This document shows positions 50-8,774 of a DNA stretch of 10,363 nt, in pieces. Each line of letters begins with the position of its first letter. Positions within the stretch are counted from its first letter, which is position 1. This DNA is from Candidatus Rokuibacteriota bacterium (GTDB lineage Bacteria; Methylomirabilota; Methylomirabilia; Rokubacteriales; CSP1-6). The stretch lies in NCBI GenBank assembly GCA_016184305.1, contig JACPCX010000103.1, positions 1 through 10,363 on the forward strand. Reading direction: 5' to 3'. A program made the position numbers and the translations under genes. The notes under the pieces are model-generated. The model saw only the letters and a list, made by a program, of their open reading frames with translations. It was not told where the DNA came from and searched no databases.

Positions 50-331
50 GTGCCGACGATACTGCATCTGCTGCTGGCGCTTGCGCTGACGGTGTTCCTG
101 GCGTTTCAGGCGGGCGCACTGGTCTTTGTCCTTCGCTCGAGACAGGCCCTGGCGGCCGGACGGTCCGCGCGGCGCTCCGAGCTTCTCTGGACCGTGATCC
201 CCGTGATGGTCGTCCTCTTCCTGGCCGCTCGCAGCTGGGTGGCGGTCTTCGACGTGGGGCGCCCGGCGCTGGCCTCGCCCGTCGTGCAGGCGGAGCGCCA
301 CGCCTCCGACACATCGACCCCTCAATGGTAA
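50..331 (+). CDS. Small two-helix membrane protein resembling the cytochrome c oxidase subunit II N-terminal transmembrane domain
   Basis: 93-aa ORF with GTG start and AAGAGGA Shine-Dalgarno at 39-45. Two hydrophobic segments; the second starts with ELLWTVIP, matching the subunit II helix-II consensus ExxWTxIP. Its stop TAA (329-331) abuts the coxB RBS. Confidence 0.7.
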   Translation: MPTILHLLLALALTVFLAFQAGALVFVLRSRQALAAGRSARRSELLWTVIPVMVVLFLAARSWVAVFDVGRPALASPVVQAERHASDTSTPQW

Positions 332-339
332 GGAATCCC

Positions 340-1365
340 ATGCGCGAGCGCCGCCAGAGCCCGTTCCGCTTCGAGACCGCGGTCCTGCTCCTCGCCGTCC
401 TGACGCTGGCCGCCGCCTGCGGCTGGAGCGGCTGGGACACGAAGATGACGACCGTCATCCCCAAGTCCGACTTCGGGAAGCTGACCCACGGCGTCTTCAT
501 GCTGATCTCCTGGTGGACGCTCTGGATCTTCATCCTCGTGGAGGCCACGCTGCTCTTCGCCGTCTGGCGCTTCCGCGAGCGGCCCGGGGCGCTGATCCCG
601 AAGCAGATCCACGGGCACACGGCGCTCGAGATCTCGTGGACGGTGGCCTTCGCCGCGATCCTGCTCATCATCGGCATCCCGACGATCCGCGTCATCTTCA
701 AGACCCAGGAGGCCCCGGCCGCCACGGCCCTCCGCGTTGACGTCACCGGCCGCCAGTGGTGGTGGGAGTTCAAGTACCCGGCGCTCAACGTCGCCACGGC
801 GAACGAGGCCCACATCCCCGTCGGGCAGACGATCGCTTTCCACCTCAACGGGCCGGACGTCATCCACTCCTTTTGGGTCCCCCAGCTGGGCGGCAAGCGC
901 GACGTGGTTCCGGGTCGGGTCAACCGGCTCGTGCTCACGCCGGACACGCCGGGCGAGTACATCGGGCAATGCGCCGAGTACTGCGGCATCTCTCACGCCA
1001 ACATGCGCTTCCGCGTCATCGTCCACTCGAAGGAGGACTTCGAGCGGTGGGTGGCGGGCCAGCAGGCGCCGGCAGCGGAGCCCAAGGACCCCCTGGCGCA
1101 GAAGGGCAAGGAGCTCTTCGGCCAGTCGGCCTGCGTGGGCTGCCACACCATCGCGGGCATCTCGGCCGGCGTGCTGGGACCCAACCTGACCCACTTCGGC
1201 AGTCGCAAGATCTTCGCGGGCGGCATGATGCCGAGCACTGCCGAGACCCTCGTCATGTGGATCGAGAACCCCGGCCACATGAAACCGGGAGTGCTCATGC
1301 CCAACCTGGGCATGAAGGGCGAGCAGTCTCAGGCCCTGGCAGCCTACCTTCTGAGCCTCAAGTAG
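340..1365 (+). CDS. coxB: Cytochrome c oxidase subunit II with fused C-terminal cytochrome c (caa3-type), probable lipoprotein
   Basis: Lipobox-like LAAAC; two TM helices with IHGHTALEISWT; GRQWWWEFKY; CuA ligands DVIHSFWVP and CAEYCGISHANM; heme c motif CVGCH with distal Met in PGVLMP. Start placed at ATG 340 (AAGGA at 330-334) rather than ATG 325. Confidence 0.96.
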   Translation: MRERRQSPFRFETAVLLLAVLTLAAACGWSGWDTKMTTVIPKSDFGKLTHGVFMLISWWTLWIFILVEATLLFAVWRFRERPGALIPKQIHGHTALEISWTVAFAAILLIIGIPTIRVIFKTQEAPAATALRVDVTGRQWWWEFKYPALNVATANEAHIPVGQTIAFHLNGPDVIHSFWVPQLGGKRDVVPGRVNRLVLTPDTPGEYIGQCAEYCGISHANMRFRVIVHSKEDFERWVAGQQAPAAEPKDPLAQKGKELFGQSACVGCHTIAGISAGVLGPNLTHFGSRKIFAGGMMPSTAETLVMWIENPGHMKPGVLMPNLGMKGEQSQALAAYLLSLK

Positions 1366-1374
1366 AGGAGCCCC

Positions 1375-3234
1375 ATGGCGACACACGCGGCATTCATGCG
1401 CGGCGAGGCGGTAGCGGCTCCGAGCGGCCTCTGGTCCTGGATCACCACCGTGGACCACAAGCGGGTCGGGATCCTGTACGGGACCAGCGCATTCATCTTC
1501 TTCCTGGTGGGCGGCATCGAGGCCCTGATCATGCGGCTGCAGCTCGCCACACCCGACAACACCCTGGTGGGGGCGCAGCGGTTCAACGAGCTGTTCACGA
1601 TGCACGGCACGACGATGGTCTTCCTGGCGATCATGCCCATGAGCGCCGCCTTCTTCAACTACATGATCCCGCTCCTGATCGGCGCGCGGGACGTGGCCTT
1701 CCCCCGGCTGAATGCCCTCTCCTACTGGGTCTTCCTGGCCGGCGCGCTGCTCCTGCACATGAGCTTCGTGGTGGGGGCGGCGCCGGACGGCGGGTGGTTC
1801 GGCTACGCGACGCTCACCTCGAAGCAGTTCTCCCCCGGCCAGAGCATCGACTTCTGGATGCTGGGGCTGCAGATCCTCGGCGTCTCCTCCCTGATGGCCG
1901 GGTTCAACTTCATCGTGACCATCGTGAACATGCGAGCGCCGGGCATGACGCTGATGCGGATGCCCGTGTTCGTCTGGATGAGCCTCGTCGTGCAGTTCCT
2001 CGTGGTGCTGGCGTTCCCGGCCATCACGGTGGCGCTCATCCTGCTCATGTTCGACCGGTTCTTCGGGACCCTCTTCTACGCGCCGGCCGCCGGCGGCGAC
2101 CCGCTGCTCTGGCAGCACCTCTTCTGGATCTTCGGCCACCCGGAGGTGTATATCCTGATCCTGCCGGCCATGGGCATCGTCTCGGAGGTGCTGCCGACCT
2201 TCGCCCGGAAGCCGCTCTTCGGGGCCCCCGTGGTGATCTACTCGGGGATCATGATCGGCTTCTTCGGCTTCGGCGTCTGGAGCCACCACATGTTCGCCGT
2301 GGGCATGGGACCGGTGGCGGACTCGGCCTTCTCCATCGCCACCATGCTCATCGCCGTGCCCACGGGCGTGAAGATCTTCAACTGGATCGGGACTCTCTGG
2401 TCGGGCTCCATCCGCTTCACCGCGGCGCTGTACTTTTCGCTGGGCTTCATCGCCATGTTCATCATGGGGGGGCTGTCCGGCGTCATGCACGCCTCGCCCC
2501 CCGTGGACCTGCAGCAGACGGACACGTACTTCGTCGTCGCCCACTTCCACTACGTGCTCTTCGGCGGGTCCATCCTCGGTCTCTTCTCGGGCGCGTATTA
2601 CTGGTGGCCCAAGATCACCGGCCGGCTGCTCGACGAGCGGCTGGGCACGCTGCACTTCTGGCTCATGCTGATCGGGTTCAACGTGACGTTCTTCCCCATG
2701 CACTACCTCGGGCTCATCGGCATGCCCCGGCGCATCTACACCTACGCCCCGGACCTCGGGTGGAACTTCTGGAACCTGGTGTCCACCGTGGGCGCCTTCC
2801 TGATCGCGGTGTCGTTCCTGGTCTTCATCGCCAACGTGTGGAAGACGATGCGGGCGGGCGCCGTCGCGAGCCCGGATCCCTGGGATGGCCGGACGCTCGA
2901 GTGGACCATCGCCTCGCCGCCGCCCGTCCACAACTTCGGCGTCATCCCGACGGTGCACGGCCGGGACGAGCTGTGGCTGCAGAAGCACGGCGACGGCCAC
3001 GGCGGCACGCCGGCGCCGCGCCCGCCGGCGCCGACGCGCCAGGATCTCGCGTCCATCCACATGCCGCCACCGTCCTACTGGCCCATCCTGCTGGCGGCAT
3101 CCATGCTGTTCATGATGAGCGGCGCCCTCATCAGCATCTACCAGGTCGTCCTGGGCGGGCTGCTCACGCTCTACTGCATGTTCCGGTTCGCCCTCGAGTA
3201 TCACCGGCCGCACCCACAGGAGAGCCGCCGGTGA
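1375..3234 (+). CDS. coxA: Cytochrome c oxidase subunit I (A1-type heme-copper oxidase) with two extra C-terminal helices
   Basis: TTVDHKRVG (D-channel Asp), TMHGT, FGHPEVYI, WSHHMF, PTGVKIF (K-channel Lys), VAHFHYV, GMPRRIY. RBS GAGGAG at 1365-1370. Confidence 0.98.
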   Translation: MATHAAFMRGEAVAAPSGLWSWITTVDHKRVGILYGTSAFIFFLVGGIEALIMRLQLATPDNTLVGAQRFNELFTMHGTTMVFLAIMPMSAAFFNYMIPLLIGARDVAFPRLNALSYWVFLAGALLLHMSFVVGAAPDGGWFGYATLTSKQFSPGQSIDFWMLGLQILGVSSLMAGFNFIVTIVNMRAPGMTLMRMPVFVWMSLVVQFLVVLAFPAITVALILLMFDRFFGTLFYAPAAGGDPLLWQHLFWIFGHPEVYILILPAMGIVSEVLPTFARKPLFGAPVVIYSGIMIGFFGFGVWSHHMFAVGMGPVADSAFSIATMLIAVPTGVKIFNWIGTLWSGSIRFTAALYFSLGFIAMFIMGGLSGVMHASPPVDLQQTDTYFVVAHFHYVLFGGSILGLFSGAYYWWPKITGRLLDERLGTLHFWLMLIGFNVTFFPMHYLGLIGMPRRIYTYAPDLGWNFWNLVSTVGAFLIAVSFLVFIANVWKTMRAGAVASPDPWDGRTLEWTIASPPPVHNFGVIPTVHGRDELWLQKHGDGHGGTPAPRPPAPTRQDLASIHMPPPSYWPILLAASMLFMMSGALISIYQVVLGGLLTLYCMFRFALEYHRPHPQESRR

Positions 3235-3836
3235 GCAGCGCACACGTCGCCGCGCACGCCGTGCACGACCCGAACACCGGCACCACCGGGCTCGACAACC
3301 GGAAGATGGGCATGTGGGCCTTCCTCGGCTCGGAGTGCATGTTCTTCGGGACGCTCATCGGCACCTACCTGTCCTACAAGGGCAAGAGCATCAGCGGCCC
3401 CACCCCGCACGAGATCCTCAACATCCCGCTCACCTCGGTCAGCGCCTTCGTCCTCCTGATGTCCTCCCTTCTCATGGTGCTGGCGCTGGCCGCCGTCCAG
3501 CGCAACGACATGAAGTGGGGGAAGATCTGGCTCTTCCTGACGGCGCTCCTCGGCGCCGGGTTCGTCGGCTTCCAGATCTACGAGTTCACCCACTTCGTCC
3601 ACCTCGGGCTCACGCTCCAGACCAACCTGTTCGGCACCACCTTCTTCGTGCTCACGGGCTTCCACGGCGCGCACGTCACGGGCGGAGTCATCTGGCTCCT
3701 GTCGCTCTGGGTGCTCGCCCTCCGCGGCAAGCTCGGGCCGCAGGACTCGCTCAAGGTGGAGATCTGCGGGCTGTACTGGCACTTCGTGGACATCGTGTGG
3801 ATCGCCATCTTCACGCTGGTCTACCTGATCCCGTAG
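3231..3836 (+). CDS. coxC: Cytochrome c oxidase subunit III (short form, 201 aa)
   Basis: GTG start overlapping the coxA stop (GTGA), preceded by AGGAG. Motifs GMWAFLGSECMFF, QIYEF, TGFHGAHV, LYWHFVDIVW. This is the real C-terminal part of the listed 756..3836 ORF. Confidence 0.95.
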   Translation: MSSAHVAAHAVHDPNTGTTGLDNRKMGMWAFLGSECMFFGTLIGTYLSYKGKSISGPTPHEILNIPLTSVSAFVLLMSSLLMVLALAAVQRNDMKWGKIWLFLTALLGAGFVGFQIYEFTHFVHLGLTLQTNLFGTTFFVLTGFHGAHVTGGVIWLLSLWVLALRGKLGPQDSLKVEICGLYWHFVDIVWIAIFTLVYLIP

Positions 3837-3847
3837 GAGTCGAGACC

Positions 3848-4180
3848 ATGGCAGACGCCCACGCTCACGCCGCGTCCCACGCCGAGGGAGGGCATGCCTC
3901 CGTGGCGACCTATCTCCGCGTCGCCGTGGTCCTGGCCATCATCACCGCCATCGAGATCACCGCGCTCTACGTGCCGGGCCTGCCCAATGCGGTGCTCGTG
4001 GCGGTGCTGATCGTGTTCTCCGTTTTCAAGTTCGGGCTGGTGGTGGCCTTCTTCATGCATCTTCGCTACGACTCGAAGGTCCTCGCGGCGCTCTTCGTCG
4101 GGCCGCTGATGATCGCCTGCGCCATCATCCTGGCCCTCATGGCGCTCTTCAGCGCGTTCCTGCTCCTGCCGCGCGCCTAG
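3848..4180 (+). CDS. coxD: Cytochrome c oxidase subunit IV (caa3 CtaF / COX4_pro type, 110 aa)
   Basis: ATG 3848 after AGGAG. His-rich N-terminus, YLRVAVVLAIITAIE, KFGLVVAFFMHLRYD, three TM helices; positioned directly after subunit III. Confidence 0.9.
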   Translation: MADAHAHAASHAEGGHASVATYLRVAVVLAIITAIEITALYVPGLPNAVLVAVLIVFSVFKFGLVVAFFMHLRYDSKVLAALFVGPLMIACAIILALMALFSAFLLLPRA

Positions 4181-4182
4181 CC

Positions 4183-5049
4183 ATGGCGCATGGACTGCCC
4201 TCGCCCGGGGCGCCGCCGCCTCTGGGGCCCGAGGGCTTCGACTGGACCGTGTGGAGCGCCGATCCCGTCGTCGTCTTGGGCCTGGCGCTCCTGGGCGGCG
4301 CCTACCTCGCGGCGACCCTGTGGCGCCGCCGGCTGGACCCGGACGCCCGCGTGGAGCCCGTCCGGGCGGTCACCTTCGCATGCGCCATGATGGTGCTGCT
4401 GGGATCGCTCACGGGCCCCCTCCACGACCTCGCCGACTACTACCTCTTCAGCGCCCACATGGTGCAGCATCTCCTGCTGGCCTTCGCCATGCCGCCGCTG
4501 CTCCTTCATGGCATCCCGGCGTGGATGGCCCGGCCGCTGCTGCGCCACCCCGCTTTGCTTCGCGCCGGGCGGAGGCTCACCCGCCCCAGCGGGGCCTTCG
4601 CCGCCTTCAACCTCGTGCTGGTGGCCTGGCATCTGCCGCCGCTCTACAATCTGGCCATGGAGGCCCACCCCGTCCACATCGCCCAGCACCTGATGATCAT
4701 GGCGGCCTCCGTCCTGCTCTGGTGGCCGCTCCTGTCGCCCACGCGTGACCTGCCTCGCGCGCCGTACCCGGTGCAGCTCCTCTATCTCTTCATCGTCGGC
4801 CTCCCGATGGTGATGGTGTCCATCTTCATCACGATGGCCGACAGCGTGCTCTACCCGTATTACGCCGCCGCCCCGCGCGTCTGGACCGCGCTCTCCCCCC
4901 ACGCGGACCAGCGCCTAGGCGGGCTCATCATGTGGATCCCCGGAGGCCTCGTGTTCCTCGCCGCCATCTCCGTGGTCTTCTTCCGCTGGCAAGCCGCCGG
5001 CGCCGGCGATGTGACCGTGGGGACCGCGGAGACGACGCATGTCCGCTAG
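4183..5049 (+). CDS. ctaG: Caa3-type cytochrome c oxidase assembly factor CtaG
   Basis: Motifs YLFSAHMVQHLLL..PPLLL, WHLPPLY, HIAQH, DQRLGGLIMWIPG, typical of the Caa3_CtaG family; operon context. Confidence 0.92.
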   Translation: MAHGLPSPGAPPPLGPEGFDWTVWSADPVVVLGLALLGGAYLAATLWRRRLDPDARVEPVRAVTFACAMMVLLGSLTGPLHDLADYYLFSAHMVQHLLLAFAMPPLLLHGIPAWMARPLLRHPALLRAGRRLTRPSGAFAAFNLVLVAWHLPPLYNLAMEAHPVHIAQHLMIMAASVLLWWPLLSPTRDLPRAPYPVQLLYLFIVGLPMVMVSIFITMADSVLYPYYAAAPRVWTALSPHADQRLGGLIMWIPGGLVFLAAISVVFFRWQAAGAGDVTVGTAETTHVR

Positions 5050-5959
5050 CCCGCCGCGCGCCCTCGCCTGGGCCACCGTCGTCGCCCTGTTCGCCCTCAT
5101 GACGCTCGGCAATATCGTCAGCGCCACCGGATCGGGCCTCGCCTGCCCGGACTGGCCTCTCTGTCACGGCAGCCTGATCCCGCCGCTGAGACCCGATGTC
5201 CTCGTCGAGTACGGCCACAGGCTGGCTGCCGCCCTCACCTCCATCCTGCTCGTGACCACCATCGTCCTCACCATTCGCCGGCGCCGCGCCCCGGGGGTGC
5301 GCCGCATCGGCCTGGGGCTCCTGGTCCTGCTGGGCATCCAGATCGGCCTCGGCGGCGTGACCGTGCTCCTGCGCCTGCCGCATCTCATCAGCACCACGCA
5401 CCTGGTGAACGCTCTGCTGATCTTCGCCGGGCTCCTGGTACTGCAGGGGCCGGGGGGGAGTGCCGCGCCCGCCGGCGTCCCGCCCAAGGTCAGACGTCTG
5501 GCCGTGGCGGGCCTCGTCGTCCTCCTGGCCCAGCTCGCCCTCGGCGGCTATGTCCGGCACACGGGGGCGGGGCTCGCCTGCCCCGATTTCCCGCTCTGCA
5601 GCGGCGATCTCCTGCCGCGCGGGTGGCTCGCCGTCGCTCACTGGGTCCACCGGTGGCTGGGGATGACGCTGCTCCCGTTCTTCATCCATCTGGCGGTGGC
5701 GGCCCGACGCACGCCGCTCGCCCGTTCCGCGTGGACGGTGGCGGCGCTCGGGGGCGCGCAGGTGGCGCTAGGCATCCTCGCCGTCGTGCTGCAGCTCACG
5801 CCAGCGGTCCGGGCCGCTCATGCCGCGGTGGGCTACGCGCTCTGGGGCACGCTCGTGTGGCTCAGTCTGGGCACGGGAGCCTGGAGCCTCGCCTTCGCCC
5901 CGGCGCGCGCGGGGCGCCAGCCTCTGCTCGAGGCCGGGGGGGCGGCCCGTGTCTCCTAG
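5039..5959 (+). CDS. ctaA: Heme A synthase (CtaA/COX15, type 1 with two Cys pairs)
   Basis: GSGLACPDWPLC..EYGHR..TTHL in the N-half and GAGLACPDFPLC..HWVHR..AAHA in the C-half (four conserved His). 11-nt overlap with ctaG. Confidence 0.93.
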   Translation: MSASPPRALAWATVVALFALMTLGNIVSATGSGLACPDWPLCHGSLIPPLRPDVLVEYGHRLAAALTSILLVTTIVLTIRRRRAPGVRRIGLGLLVLLGIQIGLGGVTVLLRLPHLISTTHLVNALLIFAGLLVLQGPGGSAAPAGVPPKVRRLAVAGLVVLLAQLALGGYVRHTGAGLACPDFPLCSGDLLPRGWLAVAHWVHRWLGMTLLPFFIHLAVAARRTPLARSAWTVAALGGAQVALGILAVVLQLTPAVRAAHAAVGYALWGTLVWLSLGTGAWSLAFAPARAGRQPLLEAGGAARVS

Positions 5960-7082
5960 CAGGCTGCTGAAAAAGGCCCATCTGCTTCGTTGGCGCCCTC
6001 GGCCGCACGCTCAACGTGGCTCGCTTGCGCTCGCCGGATCTCCGGATATGCTCGCCTCGCCTCCGGCTCCGCTCGCCAAGCGGAGTACGCCTCGCGTGCG
6101 GCCGTCGGGCGCCGCCTCGCATCTGGACCTTTTTGAGCAGCCCGCAGGGTTTCCCCGCATCCTGCTAGGTCGGCGCGCGCTCCCGCCTGCCGGAGTGCGG
6201 GACAGCGTCGGCGCCTACGCGGAGCTCTCCAAGCTCGGCATCGTCCTGCTCGTGCTCGTCTCGGCCTGCGCCGGCTTCATGCTGGCGGCCCCCCTCGGCG
6301 CCGAGTTCCCGTGGCGGCAGGGCGTCCTGGTCCTCCTGGGGGTGATGCTCCTGTCCTGCGGCGCCTCGGCGCTCAACCAGGTGCAGGAGCGTGAGCGCGA
6401 TGCCCTGATGGGACGGACGGCAAACCGGCCACTCCCCTCGGGCCGCCTCTCGCTGGCCCAGGGAACCCTGTTCGCCGTCCTGGCGCTCGTCACCGGGGCG
6501 ATGGTGCTGTGGCTCGGCGTGGGCGGGACGGCCGGCGCCCTCGGGCTCGCCGCGGCCTCCTTCTACAACGGCCTCTACACCCCGTGGCTCAAGCCGACCT
6601 CCCCCTTCGCGGCCGTGCCGGGGGCAGTGCCGGGATCGCTCCCGCCCGTGATCGGCTGGGTGGCCGGCGGGGGATCCCTCACCGACGCGGGCGCGCTCAT
6701 CCTGTTCGGCGTCCTGTTCCTCTGGCAGATGCCCCACTTCTGGGCGCTGGCCCTGCGCTACCGAGCTGACTACGCCTCGGGGGGCTTCCCCATGGTGTCC
6801 GAGGCCGTCGGCGTCGAGGGCACGGCCCGGCTCATCCTCCTCTACGCGCTTGGGCTCACCGCGCTCGCCGTGGCCGCGCCGAGCTTCGGGCTGGGCGGAT
6901 TGGCCTCGCTGGCGGCCGCCTCGCTGCTGGGCTGGCGGCTCATCTGGCTGGCCAGCAAGTTCGCGCGGCGGCCCGAGGACCGGCGCGGATGGCTCTCCCT
7001 CTTCCTCTTCTCCAACGTCTATCTCCTGCTGTTCTTCGCCGTCCTCGTCGGAGAGCGCCTCGTCCGCCACGCCCTCCCCTAG
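5949..7082 (+). CDS. ctaB: Protoheme IX farnesyltransferase (heme O synthase); start uncertain (GTG 5949 reading through the repeat element, or GTG 6195 after it)
   Basis: YAELSKLGIV, ALNQVQERERDALMGRTANRPLPSGR, YNGLYTPWLK, GSLPPVIGW, FLWQMPHFWALA..YRADY..GFPM (UbiA/CyoE family). Recognisable domain begins about 6195. GTG 5949 overlaps the ctaA end by 11 nt, the same geometry as ctaG/ctaA. Confidence 0.9.
   Translation: MSPSRLLKKAHLLRWRPRPHAQRGSLALAGSPDMLASPPAPLAKRSTPRVRPSGAASHLDLFEQPAGFPRILLGRRALPPAGVRDSVGAYAELSKLGIVLLVLVSACAGFMLAAPLGAEFPWRQGVLVLLGVMLLSCGASALNQVQERERDALMGRTANRPLPSGRLSLAQGTLFAVLALVTGAMVLWLGVGGTAGALGLAAASFYNGLYTPWLKPTSPFAAVPGAVPGSLPPVIGWVAGGGSLTDAGALILFGVLFLWQMPHFWALALRYRADYASGGFPMVSEAVGVEGTARLILLYALGLTALAVAAPSFGLGGLASLAAASLLGWRLIWLASKFARRPEDRRGWLSLFLFSNVYLLLFFAVLVGERLVRHALP
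5956..6168. mobile_element. Non-autonomous MITE/REP-like palindromic element bounded by CTAG
   Basis: CTAG at 5956-5959 and 6165-6168. Terminal IR CCTAGCAGGCTGC (5955-5967) vs 6157-6169, 12/13. Second IR 5962-5985 vs 6119-6142, 20/24. Inner stems 5992-5998/6107-6113 (7/7), 6000-6010/6094-6104 (11/11) and 6022-6027/6077-6082 (6/6). No transposase in the window. Confidence 0.8.
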
Positions 7083-7120
7083 CCCGCCGCGGCGGGCCTG
7101 CGGCCTCAGGCCCGCGCGGC
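7082..7120. terminator. GC-rich hairpin(s) between convergent ctaB and acyl-CoA synthetase; possible bidirectional terminator or 3'-end stabiliser
   Basis: Stem GCGGGCCTG (7092-7100) / CAGGCCCGC (7107-7115), extendable by 7086-7090/7116-7120 with a 1-nt bulge. Overlapping perfect palindrome GCCCGCCGCGGCGGGC at 7082-7097. No U-tract on either strand. Confidence 0.4.
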
Positions 7121-8641
7121 ACCGGCCCGCTCCTGGTCGCGCAGGACCCGCCGCAGGAGCTTGCCGTTGGCCAGCTTGGGCAGTTCGGCCACGAACGCCA
7201 CCGCGCGAGGCACCTTGAAGCTGGCGAGGCGGTCCCGGCACCCGGCGATCACGGCCTCGGCGGTCGTCGACGTGCCCGGCCTGAGGACGACGAAGGCCTT
7301 GACGATCTCGCCCTTGACCGGGTCCGGCGCGCCGACCACGGCCGCCTCGTAGACCTCCGGCATGGCGTACAGGACCTCTTCCACCTCGCGCGGGTAAACG
7401 TTGTAGCCGGCGGTGATGATCAGATCGTCCTTGCGATCGACCAGGAAGTAGAAGCCGTCGGCGTCCTGGTAGGCGAGGTCGCCGGTGTGGAACCACCCTC
7501 CGCGGTAGTCGTGCGCGGTCTTGCTGGGCAGGCGCCAGAAGCCGGGCGGGATGGAGGGACCGCGCGCGAGCAGCTCGCCGACCGTCCCGGCAGGCACGGC
7601 ATGGCCGTCCTCGTCGACGATGGCCATCTCCATCTCGGGGAACGGCAGGCGCTTGCCGAGGGAGCCGTACCTCTGTGGCGCCGCGGGCTCCCAGAGGGGA
7701 GACGTGGTCGAGGCCCAGCCGGTGCATCCGTACCAGTCGACCACGACGACTCCGGTGCGGGCGATGAACTCGCGCTGGATCTCGACGGGGATGGGAGCGC
7801 CGCCCACCACCGCCAGGCGGAGCGAGGTGAGGTCGCGCCGCTCCAGGTCGATGTCGCGGGTGAGGTAGACGTACATGGTCGGCACGCCGGAGAAGACCGT
7901 GATGCGCTCGCGCTCGATGCGCCGGGCGACCTCCTCCACGTCCCACCGGGGCAGCAGGCGCAGGGTTGCGCCGGTGGCGCAGGCCACCAGGGTCATCATC
8001 AGGCCGAAGGTGTGGAAGATGGGCAGCGCCACCAGGTGGCGGTCGTCCTGGCGGAGCTGCCAGACCTGGACATGCCACTGCATCATGCCGACCCACCAGT
8101 TGCGGTGAGTGATCATCACGCCCTTGGCCCGGCCGGTGGTGCCGGAGGTGTAGTGAAGGGCGCAGAGATCGTCCGGGTCGCGCTCCACCAGCACCGGGGC
8201 GGCGGGCCGGGCGACCAGGTCGGCGAGGCGATGGCTGCCGAAGGGGACGGTGTCGGCCGCGACGATGAGGTGCTCGAGCTCGGGCGCATCGGGCCAGGCC
8301 AGGTCCAGCAGCGGCAGGAACTCGGGGTCGGCAATGATCACCCGGGAGGCGGCATTGCGCAGCACGTAGGAGATCTCGTCCTGCCTGTACATGGTGTTCA
8401 GCGGCGAGGCGACGCCGCCTGCCTTGATCGCCGCCCAGTAGCTGATCAGGAAGGCGATGGAGTTCGGCAGCATGATGCTGACCCGGTCGCCGGGGCGCAA
8501 CCCGAGGGCCTGGAGGGCTGCGGCGAGGTTGTCGGTCCGCCGGTCCAGCTCGCGCCAGGTGAGGCTCTCCTCGCCGAAGCAGACAGCCGCCCTGTCGGGC
8601 AGGCGCCGGGCGTTGTCCACCAGATACTGCGCCAGGTTCAT
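7106..8641 (-). CDS. AMP-dependent acyl-CoA synthetase (ANL superfamily, long-chain-fatty-acid--CoA ligase-like); substrate unknown
   Basis: P-loop HYTSGTTGRAKG, LPIFHTFG, GELLARGP, WFHTGDLA, VDRKDDLII.AGYNVYPREVE, C-terminal LPKLANGKL. RBS GGAGGAG (complement of 8651-8657). Confidence 0.93.
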   Translation of the reverse strand: MNLAQYLVDNARRLPDRAAVCFGEESLTWRELDRRTDNLAAALQALGLRPGDRVSIMLPNSIAFLISYWAAIKAGGVASPLNTMYRQDEISYVLRNAASRVIIADPEFLPLLDLAWPDAPELEHLIVAADTVPFGSHRLADLVARPAAPVLVERDPDDLCALHYTSGTTGRAKGVMITHRNWWVGMMQWHVQVWQLRQDDRHLVALPIFHTFGLMMTLVACATGATLRLLPRWDVEEVARRIERERITVFSGVPTMYVYLTRDIDLERRDLTSLRLAVVGGAPIPVEIQREFIARTGVVVVDWYGCTGWASTTSPLWEPAAPQRYGSLGKRLPFPEMEMAIVDEDGHAVPAGTVGELLARGPSIPPGFWRLPSKTAHDYRGGWFHTGDLAYQDADGFYFLVDRKDDLIITAGYNVYPREVEEVLYAMPEVYEAAVVGAPDPVKGEIVKAFVVLRPGTSTTAEAVIAGCRDRLASFKVPRAVAFVAELPKLANGKLLRRVLRDQERAGAARA

Positions 8642-8774
8642 GGCAACTCGCTCCTCCGTCGGCCCACAGGGGGGGGTTGAGCTGCGGGACGCGCCCTCTC
8701 TCTACCAGGATAGGGGGAGACTGTGACCCCCTGGGAGTCTAGAGCCTATTCCAGGACTTGGGAAGGGGCGCGAT

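Follow-up and report, generated by a model that had tools for sequence, protein, structure and literature searches.

Can a mobile repeat that lands between two overlapping genes become part of the protein encoded by the second one? This question is raised by a stretch of 10,363 nt of a Candidatus Rokuibacteriota bacterium (contig JACPCX010000103.1, assembly GCA_016184305.1; the whole stretch is called the window below), where a palindromic element of 213 bp separates ctaA (heme A synthase) from the conserved body of ctaB (heme O synthase). The window stems from a Rokubacteriales metagenome-assembled genome (MAG) of 3.2 Mb in 239 contigs (G000; 88.8% complete, 70% G+C). An original prediction, made from the letters of the window, had proposed that ctaB starts upstream of the element, at GTG 5949, and is read through it. 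We find the start of ctaB to overlap ctaA in most relatives without the repeat, and the repeat to be in frame and free of stops at all four junctions that carry it. Based on these sequence patterns, the repeat is probably translated by read-through from GTG 5949 as extra CtaB protein. The features of the window on which this reading depends are as follows.

5039 to 5959, plus strand: ctaA (heme A synthase, COX15-CtaA), 306 aa, from the list of open reading frames (ORFs); Pfam PF02628, E 1.5e-38
5949 to 5951, plus strand: GTG taken as the ancestral ctaB start; ATG or GTG at the same place in 19/29 empty orthologous junctions
5956 to 6168, no strand: long-form hairpin element of the MITE type (miniature inverted-repeat transposable element), 213 bp, CTAG to CTAG; copies of 81-95% identity in its own genome, folds, empty orthologous sites
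5956 to 5974, no strand: left terminal inverted repeat (TIR), CTAGCAGGCTGCTGAAAAA; inverted-repeat pair, sharp left boundary in a 29-copy alignment
6018 to 6081, no strand: inner module of ~64 nt in the hairpin tip; missing from short-form copies
6096 to 6098, plus strand: in-frame GTG within the element, candidate alternative ctaB start; GGAG 10 nt upstream, public proteins P0033 and P0034 start at the equivalent codon
6147 to 6168, no strand: right tail, which partly repeats the end motif a second time and ends in the right CTAG; alignment of copies
6169 to 6194, plus strand: remaining ancestral ctaB leader, 26 nt; junction sequences and distances
6195 to 7082, plus strand: conserved body of ctaB (heme O synthase, UbiA), stop 7080-7082; Pfam PF01040, E 3.2e-48

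The answer depends on where ctaB started before the repeat arrived. We read 33 orthologous ctaA-ctaB junctions (28 + 5) from genomes of the same family, among which 29 are empty and 4 are filled by the repeat. Four further genomes were set aside beforehand, as G118 has a frame problem, the contigs of G100 and G111 stop short of ctaA, and G157 is too short; the unpublished genome G012 enters in the tallies only. A start codon, mostly ATG and otherwise GTG, overlaps the TAG stop of ctaA by 11 nt in 19/29 empty junctions (in the form ATG CCN CCT AGG), four more junctions show an 8-nt overlap, and the others have other close arrangements. The distance from the stop to the codon equivalent to 6195 is exactly 40 nt in 20 empty junctions, and all 28 junctions with a TAG stop have a length of 1 mod 3 (37, 40, 52, 73, 91, 187, 190, 235, 238). 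The 6195-equivalent codon is not ATG, GTG or TTG at 18/33 junctions, i.e., it reads GTC, CTG, CTC, GCC, GGC or TCC. For the leader codons 5-17, compared over 16 orthologues with a 40-nt spacer, the G+C fraction is 0.69, 0.84 and 0.93 at codon positions 1, 2 and 3, and position 2 varies least. The NCBI gene call in an empty-site relative starts at the overlapping codon (P0031, 312 aa).

The window itself follows this pattern. GTG 5949 overlaps ctaA by 11 nt, which is the same layout in which ATG 5039 of ctaA overlaps the preceding Caa3_CtaG ORF (4183-5049) by 11 nt (ATG TCC GCT AG). GTG 6195 is preceded by ccgga such that the only GGAG-like letters touch the start codon with zero spacing; coxA and the UDP-glucose dehydrogenase gene carry gaggag and gggggag 5-7 nt upstream of their starts. 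Judged by these comparisons, the true ancestral ctaB start is the overlapping codon, GTG 5949 in the window, and not 6195. The original prediction had favoured 5949 and had seen no properly spaced ribosome-binding site at 6195, and both statements agree with what we find (overlap in 19/29 empty junctions, leader of fixed length with 0.93 G+C at third positions, and nothing but ccgga adjoining GTG 6195). Given that overlapping starts are found in 19/29 empty junctions while the 6195 codon is no start at 18/33, the repeat lies within codons 3-4 (CCT AGG) of the ancestral ctaB. The 11-nt overlap of the native ctaB start with ctaA makes translational coupling of the two genes probable.

We compared the four filled junctions with their nearest empty relatives, i.e., G000, G001 and G002 with G003, and G135 with its sister G141. 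The distances below run from the ctaA stop to the 6195 codon or its equivalent.

G000 (the window): long form, 235 nt, net insert +195 nt
G001: long form in the same orientation as in G000, 238 nt, net insert +198 nt
G002: short form in the opposite orientation, 190 nt, net insert +150 nt
G135 (another genus): short form in the same orientation, 187 nt, net insert +135 nt against G141

All four net inserts are multiples of three and free of stops from the native start position into CtaB, and in 3/4 filled junctions the ctaB frame is the only open forward frame. Among the 33 junctions read, 0/4 filled ones have ctaB behind a repeat that is out of frame or carries a stop. In the window, the ctaB frame has 82 open codons between GTG 5949 and GTG 6195 and stays open until the stop at 7080-7082, and the other two forward frames have 2 stops each between 5949 and 6195. 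In G000 and G001 alike, 26 nt of the 40-nt spacer are left. The shared flank deletion of 14 nt converts +209 into +195 in G000 and +212 into +198 in G001. The original prediction had noted that an element of 209 nt would shift the frame unless an indel compensated for it, and this deletion is such an indel (209 - 14 = 195 nt). The raw insert of G002 is 150 nt with the full 40-nt spacer, i.e., without flank deletion. Within a tree of ctaA+ctaB (single locus), the empty G003 is sister to G002 and the empty G141 is sister to G135. As empty genomes are thus sisters of filled ones, about three separate insertions are indicated.

As a control, we modelled the precise insertion of 18 end-intact G000 copies in both orientations (36 cases). 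Here, 3/36 insertions are in frame and open, all of them short and reversed as in G002, while 0/24 long-form cases are in frame, which fits the 14-nt deletion in G000. Three chance in-frame successes are unlikely (~1 in 300 to 1 in 2000, depending on the model). The in-frame and open state at all four filled junctions thus argues for read-through translation.

The explanation that best links these observations starts from a non-autonomous hairpin MITE inserting at the TA inside the very rare CTAG. A long-form copy landed in the CTAG of ...GTG TCT CCT AGG..., i.e., the ctaA stop together with ctaB codons 3-4, and the duplicated TAG keeps the ctaA stop intact. The left end of the element (5956 to 5974) is closed by TAG in one frame and by TGA at codon 5 in another, which leaves only the ctaB frame open, where it reads AGC AGG CTG CTG AAA AAG. 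The site would be tolerant because the element end, closed in two frames, is open in the third and the 11-nt overlap puts ctaB there. The 14-nt flank deletion then set the net insertion to 195 nt (65 codons), such that ribosomes starting at 5949 would read through the repeat into CtaB and add a basic, proline-rich stretch to the short N-terminal leader of CtaB, which we take to be cytoplasmic. The inserted peptide is basic indeed, with 14 K+R vs. 3 D+E. That the read-through protein is made, and that it is the functional CtaB, is what we infer from the preserved frame.

Several observations weigh against read-through from GTG 5949. G001 shares the insertion but has CTG in place of the native GTG, and therefore a downstream start, or a rare CTG start, must serve at least there. 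In-frame GTGs are present inside or behind the element in 4/4 filled genomes (6096 and 6195 in the window, index 54 in G135), and the GTG at the 6195 position is already found in the empty-site G003, such that a fallback start existed before the insertion. Complete public proteins never start at 5949, as callers chose 6195 (295 aa, the exact window product) or the in-element GTG (328 aa; P0033, P0034), with 317 aa called for the G002 type. When the 377-aa read-through product was compared with 1.84 billion representative proteins, only a fragment (P0043, 128 aa) covered the insert, and among complete proteins the best match was P0036 (314 aa), whose alignment begins at its residue 18, as would that of an empty-site protein with a 17-residue leader. 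RNA contigs of 4 metatranscriptome assemblies cover only 5955-6146 of the region 5600-6600, and this by other copies of the repeat; the missing cover of ctaA and ctaB is uninformative either way, and contigs cannot show starts. A second UbiA homologue in the genome (37% identity, contig C123) could relax selection on ctaB, and a hairpin of -131 kcal/mol might hinder translation. Furthermore, the independent events are few (~3), and their number depends on the tree of a single locus. In G135, the right junction is eroded, and the repeat copies of G135 and G141 vary too much at their right ends to reconstruct the original insert, for which reason we make no claim of a frame-restoring deletion in G135.

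These points lead to an alternative in which the same mobile element is untranslated, i.e., CtaB starts at GTG 6195 or 6096, the repeat forms an RNA hairpin between the cistrons or in the 5' leader, and its open frame is chance or a relic. Such a hairpin might lower or uncouple ctaB expression, or it might stabilise the upstream ctaA message; hairpins of REP (repetitive extragenic palindromic) and BIME type are known to stabilise upstream messages. This would accommodate that ctaB is intact in G001 without the upstream GTG, that a GTG occupies the 6195 position throughout the genus (four species, the empty G003 among them), and that public gene calls use 6195 or the in-element GTG. It also draws on the frequency of open frames at 70% G+C: in copies that are certainly non-coding, the frame corresponding to that of ctaB is open in 13/30 long and 8/19 short ones, and copies at ruvC and at a lipoprotein gene are open in the frame of the downstream gene by chance, with the true start behind the element. 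On the other hand, an untranslated repeat leaves the 4/4 in-frame junctions and the 14-nt deletion (+209 to +195) unexplained, with 3/36 modelled insertions being compatible. GTG 6195 has no usable Shine-Dalgarno spacing, its equivalent in G135 is GCC, and without a preserved frame, ribosomes from the conserved coupled start would pass over the downstream start in another frame. Taken together, we consider the untranslated repeat possible but rather doubtful. With regard to the translated insert of the original prediction, the open frame is borne out in 4/4 filled junctions, while its upstream GTG does not carry over to G001 (CTG) and in-frame GTGs follow downstream in all four.

Assuming that the repeat is translated within CtaB, we asked whether the family donates peptides in general. 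Among the 49 full copies in G000, 4 lie in a coding-like open frame, all at the frame's 5' end. Two of them belong to ruvC and the lipoprotein gene, whose real starts follow the element, and a third lies in a shadow frame of the opposite strand; the only copy with a native start upstream is the one in ctaB (1/49). A search with the peptide returned 28 public predicted proteins, of which 14 were read. In 14/14 the peptide is an N- or C-terminal extension, often after garbled frames, or part of a tandem repeat array (P0001), and none of the 14 has conserved domains on both sides of the peptide. The original prediction of a family that donates peptides to proteins is thus not supported as a general role, as ctaB is the only such case among 49 copies and public proteins show terminal extensions or a tandem array. 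A further reading is tentative, though quite possible: an element whose ends stop two frames and leave the third one open may, upon landing in a stop/start overlap, preserve the upstream stop and become a selected translated module of the downstream protein. This may have occurred about three times at ctaA/ctaB in Rokubacteria, with frame-restoring deletions where needed. If true, repeat-derived segments of 45-66 residues, different from species to species, form part of the N-terminus of heme O synthase, an essential respiratory enzyme, and peptide donation like that of Rickettsia palindromic elements (RPEs) would exist outside Rickettsia with a visible selective footprint.

To our knowledge, Rickettsia provides nearly all examples of mobile repeats of bacteria that have become parts of proteins, and we know of little evidence of selection on the reading frame for such repeats. 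The ctaA/ctaB site of this uncultured phylum has received the repeat several times, in both orientations and in both element forms, and it comes with empty-site relatives and a deletion that restores the frame. Owing to these contrasts, the site forms a small natural experiment on the tolerance of a selfish repeat in an essential gene. There is also a practical side. The ctaB start calls of these genomes disagree (295, 312, 317 and 328 aa), and the conserved overlapping start shows the correct call at empty sites. Likewise, the family's strong tie to TAG stops is useful for annotating Methylomirabilota genomes.

The element is a palindrome from the left CTAG at 5956-5959, whose TAG (5957-5959) is the ctaA stop, to the right CTAG at 6165-6168, just as the original prediction had described it. 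It folds as a single long hairpin on both strands (-131.2 and -142.7 kcal/mol; z -6.3 and -7.5), with 0/200 shuffles being as stable. Its terminal inverted repeats of 19-20 nt (CTAGCAGGCYGCTGAAAAA) recur inverted at the opposite end of the element, and the left flanks of 29 aligned copies diverge exactly before (C/G)TAG. With 213 bp in the long and ~150 bp in the short form, there is no room for a transposase. The right tail (6147 to 6168) is present in the copies of ~213 bp and missing from those of ~190 bp in the alignment. The Rfam search (E up to 1) gave no match at the element and only a chance miRNA-like match elsewhere in the window.

Short copies match only columns 1-64 and 131-215 of the repeat profile, i.e., they are without the inner module. 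RNA and DNA contigs of other copies jump from 6017 to 6082-6086 with 3-6 other letters in between. The inner module also occurs in G000 without the hairpin element, in tandem arrays of 2-3 units (C76:60880-61050 and C142:830-1080). Since short copies are without the module and the module is also found alone or in tandem, the long form is a composite, i.e., a hairpin element of ~150 bp with a small repeat nested in its tip.

With regard to copy number, a BLAST search of G000 gave 78 places matching the repeat, and a profile search (profile built from 16 full copies) gave 106 hits that merge into 77 places, namely 30 long copies (~190-216 bp), 19 short copies (~150 bp) and 28 fragments. The 49 full copies begin with CTAG (34), GTAG (7) or ATAG (1) in the cases counted, and most copies carry CTAG at both ends. 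The family is found in all 3 other species of the genus, with at least 41-44 matches each, and several other genera and families of the order have the repeat with weaker or end-only matches. A 20-mer from the element end is found in at least 121 stretches of the GTDB representative genomes. Among 80 loci fetched from these, 59 are titled NC10, Rokubacteria or Methylomirabil-, and the remaining 21 are MAGs with other labels. For the Limiplasma and Bacillota loci (L092, L069, L098, L106), only ~32 nt match the profile; these may represent another element sharing this end or mis-binned contigs. L092, a Limiplasma MAG record, carries the end 20-mer three times with a spacing of 188-189 nt.

Given 77 places in G000 and empty orthologous sites at 29/33 junctions, the mobile, multi-copy MITE-like family that the original prediction had suspected is confirmed. 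We regard the repeat as very probably a mobile, MITE-like family of soil and groundwater Rokubacteria that occurs across Methylomirabilota. A literature search on repeats and MITEs of Rokubacteria and Methylomirabilota found no published description of the family. A public predicted protein of 247 aa (P0001) reads four tandem long-form copies as one open frame, and the family is therefore able to form head-to-tail arrays. Repeat-family sequences, mostly of the short form, are also abundant in 4 sediment and soil metatranscriptomes (X15, X16, X17, X19), with many different flanks.

The target of the element is rare. In G000, CTAG occurs 596 times outside the elements vs. 8804 expected from base composition (~15-fold depleted), and TA is ~2.3-fold under-represented. 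The ~49 full copies contribute a noticeable share of all CTAGs in this genome. We related the terminal TAG to a crude own set of coding-like ORFs (at least 90 codons, filtered on codon-position G+C). In 35/49 full copies (23/30 long, 12/19 short), an ORF of this set reads into the element and ends at a terminal TAG; outside the elements, 229/596 CTAGs (38%) provide the stop of such an ORF. The preference for CTAG and TAG stops that had been postulated is thus visible in these counts, and target rarity together with the loss of gene-breaking insertions is enough to explain it. The duplicated TAG leaves the upstream stop intact.

Empty sites hold one CCTAGG, and filled sites have CTAG at both ends. 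A TA duplication suits four copies better than a 4-bp one: C203 181-392 and C38 44478-44627 begin with GTAG and end in CTAG, and two others begin with CTAG and end in CTAC. The 4-bp model agrees with one copy, which has ATAG at either end. The target duplication is thus likely the TA within CTAG, where TA and CTAG are not fully distinguishable as the duplicated letters.

We also looked for an autonomous partner. DDE_3 (PF13358) gave 1 hit in 5 genomes, in a locus of G003 without any match to the repeat profile. Y1_Tnp gave 3 loci in 5 genomes (genes in G000, G001 and G002) without the repeat or its end motif within the ~1.5-kb flanks fetched, and one of these loci is an ordinary IS200/IS605 gene pair. 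Overall, no cognate autonomous element with the same ends was found among half-copies, DDE_3 and Y1_Tnp loci, which is weak evidence in MAGs. MAGs are often without their insertion sequences. Three candidates were rejected: the half-copies in G000 are internally deleted short forms, C72 is not an insertion sequence but two partial copies around a fatty-acid desaturase gene, and what lies between an inverted pair of copies in L099 is an unrelated ORF (338 aa, no obvious family). This pair (L099:1492-2825) consists of two inverted short copies 1.3 kb apart, and the TAG stop of its upstream gene lies in the element end.

An alternative origin would be a REP- or REPIN-like palindrome moved by a tyrosine transposase of the RAYT type, or a structural RNA or DNA repeat maintained by the host, rather than a TIR-type MITE moved by a DDE transposase. 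Palindromes tagged with (G/C)TAG that supply the stop of the flanking ORF are described for GTAG REPs in the excerpt of PMC3733652, and 7/49 copies begin with GTAG. No DDE partner was found in the 5 genomes, genes for Y1 transposases exist in G000, G001 and G002, and element sequences are abundant in the 4 metatranscriptome assemblies. However, the ~1.5-kb flanks fetched for the 3 Y1_Tnp loci contain neither the repeat nor its end motif, one of these loci is the IS200/IS605 pair, and the element in the window has no Rfam match. The elements, with 150-215 bp, TIRs of 19 nt and CTAG mostly at both ends, are unlike the REPs of 20-40 bp that are tagged at one end, and presence and absence at orthologous sites as well as both orientations at one CTAG fit transposition. 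We thus consider this origin highly improbable and continue with a TIR-type MITE.

Among known systems, RPEs come closest with regard to the outcome. These palindromic repeats of ~100-150 bp lie in frame inside protein-coding genes and add a peptide segment, according to the part of PMC10969869 consulted. Like RPEs, the ctaB copy is located within the ORF, at codons 3-4, in frame and stop-free in 4/4 filled genomes. RPEs occupy the bodies of dozens of unrelated genes per genome, whereas here 1/49 copies lies in a gene with a native start upstream, and this at the extreme N-terminus, in a stop/start overlap. Also, RPEs are CGTC-tagged in the excerpt of PMC3733652, while the Rokubacterial family ends in CTAG, and the phyla differ.

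As for mobility, the family resembles MITEs of the IS630/Tc1-mariner type in CTAG insertion, a duplication consistent with TA, TIRs, small size and the absence of an encoded transposase. It differs in that the search of 5 genomes yielded no transposase of the IS630 family with matching ends; the single DDE_3 hit has no repeat nearby. IS630 itself reportedly prefers TA within 5'-CTAG-3' (Tenzen and Ohtsubo, 1991). A TA target of IS630-type elements is also given in the part of PMC2170065 consulted.

With regard to position, GTAG-tagged REPs are hairpins 3' of genes, and their terminal TAG often supplies the stop of the flanking ORF (excerpt of PMC3733652). The family shares with REPs and REPINs that a hairpin repeat stands downstream of genes and that the terminal TAG often supplies the stop. 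REPs measure 20-40 bp with GTAG at one end, whereas the copies here have 150-215 bp with CTAG at both ends, and unlike in REP/RAYT systems no RAYT gene flanked by the repeat was found (3 Y1_Tnp loci in 5 genomes). Mycobacterial interspersed repetitive units (MIRUs) lie between operon genes such that stop and start codons of the neighbours overlap the repeat and one frame is open. This layout is shared by the repeat in the window, i.e., it lies between operon genes, overlaps their stop and start codons and has a frame open through it. MIRUs, however, are tandem direct repeats without TIRs or a long hairpin, and here only the inner module of ~64 nt occurs alone or in tandem.

QMITE1 and QMITE2 of Coxiella burnetii and intragenic ERIC sequences give stop codons or terminal residues to their neighbours and form stable RNA stems (parts of PMC5896051 and PMC10969869). 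These cases are mostly C-terminal, and a recurrent frame-restored insertion at one stop/start overlap is not described in those parts of the two papers (PMC5896051, PMC10969869). As far as the consulted parts of these sources extend, in-frame MITE fusions, stops from (G)TAG palindromes and TA/CTAG targeting are already known in other families. New are the family itself and its site: insertions recur where the stop of one gene overlaps the start of an essential respiratory gene, they preserve the frame, and a compensating deletion accompanies them.

Upstream of ctaA, the window holds the remaining genes of a caa3-type cytochrome oxidase operon.

325 to 1365, plus strand: coxB
1375 to 3234, plus strand: coxA
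3314 to 4180, plus strand: ORF containing subunit IV
4183 to 5049, plus strand: Caa3_CtaG ORF

The UbiA-family Pfam domain of ctaB begins near nt 6252, and the ctaB orthologues show 72-97% identity. A second UbiA/heme O synthase-like gene of G000 is located at C123:14668-15513 and is 37% identical to the CtaB of the window. At the ctaG/ctaA junction (5039-5049), the stop codon also lies in a CTAG, which makes it a second potential landing site that is empty here. Finally, a putative 563-aa open frame without a Pfam match (6989-8680) overlaps the 3' end of ctaB by ~90 nt.

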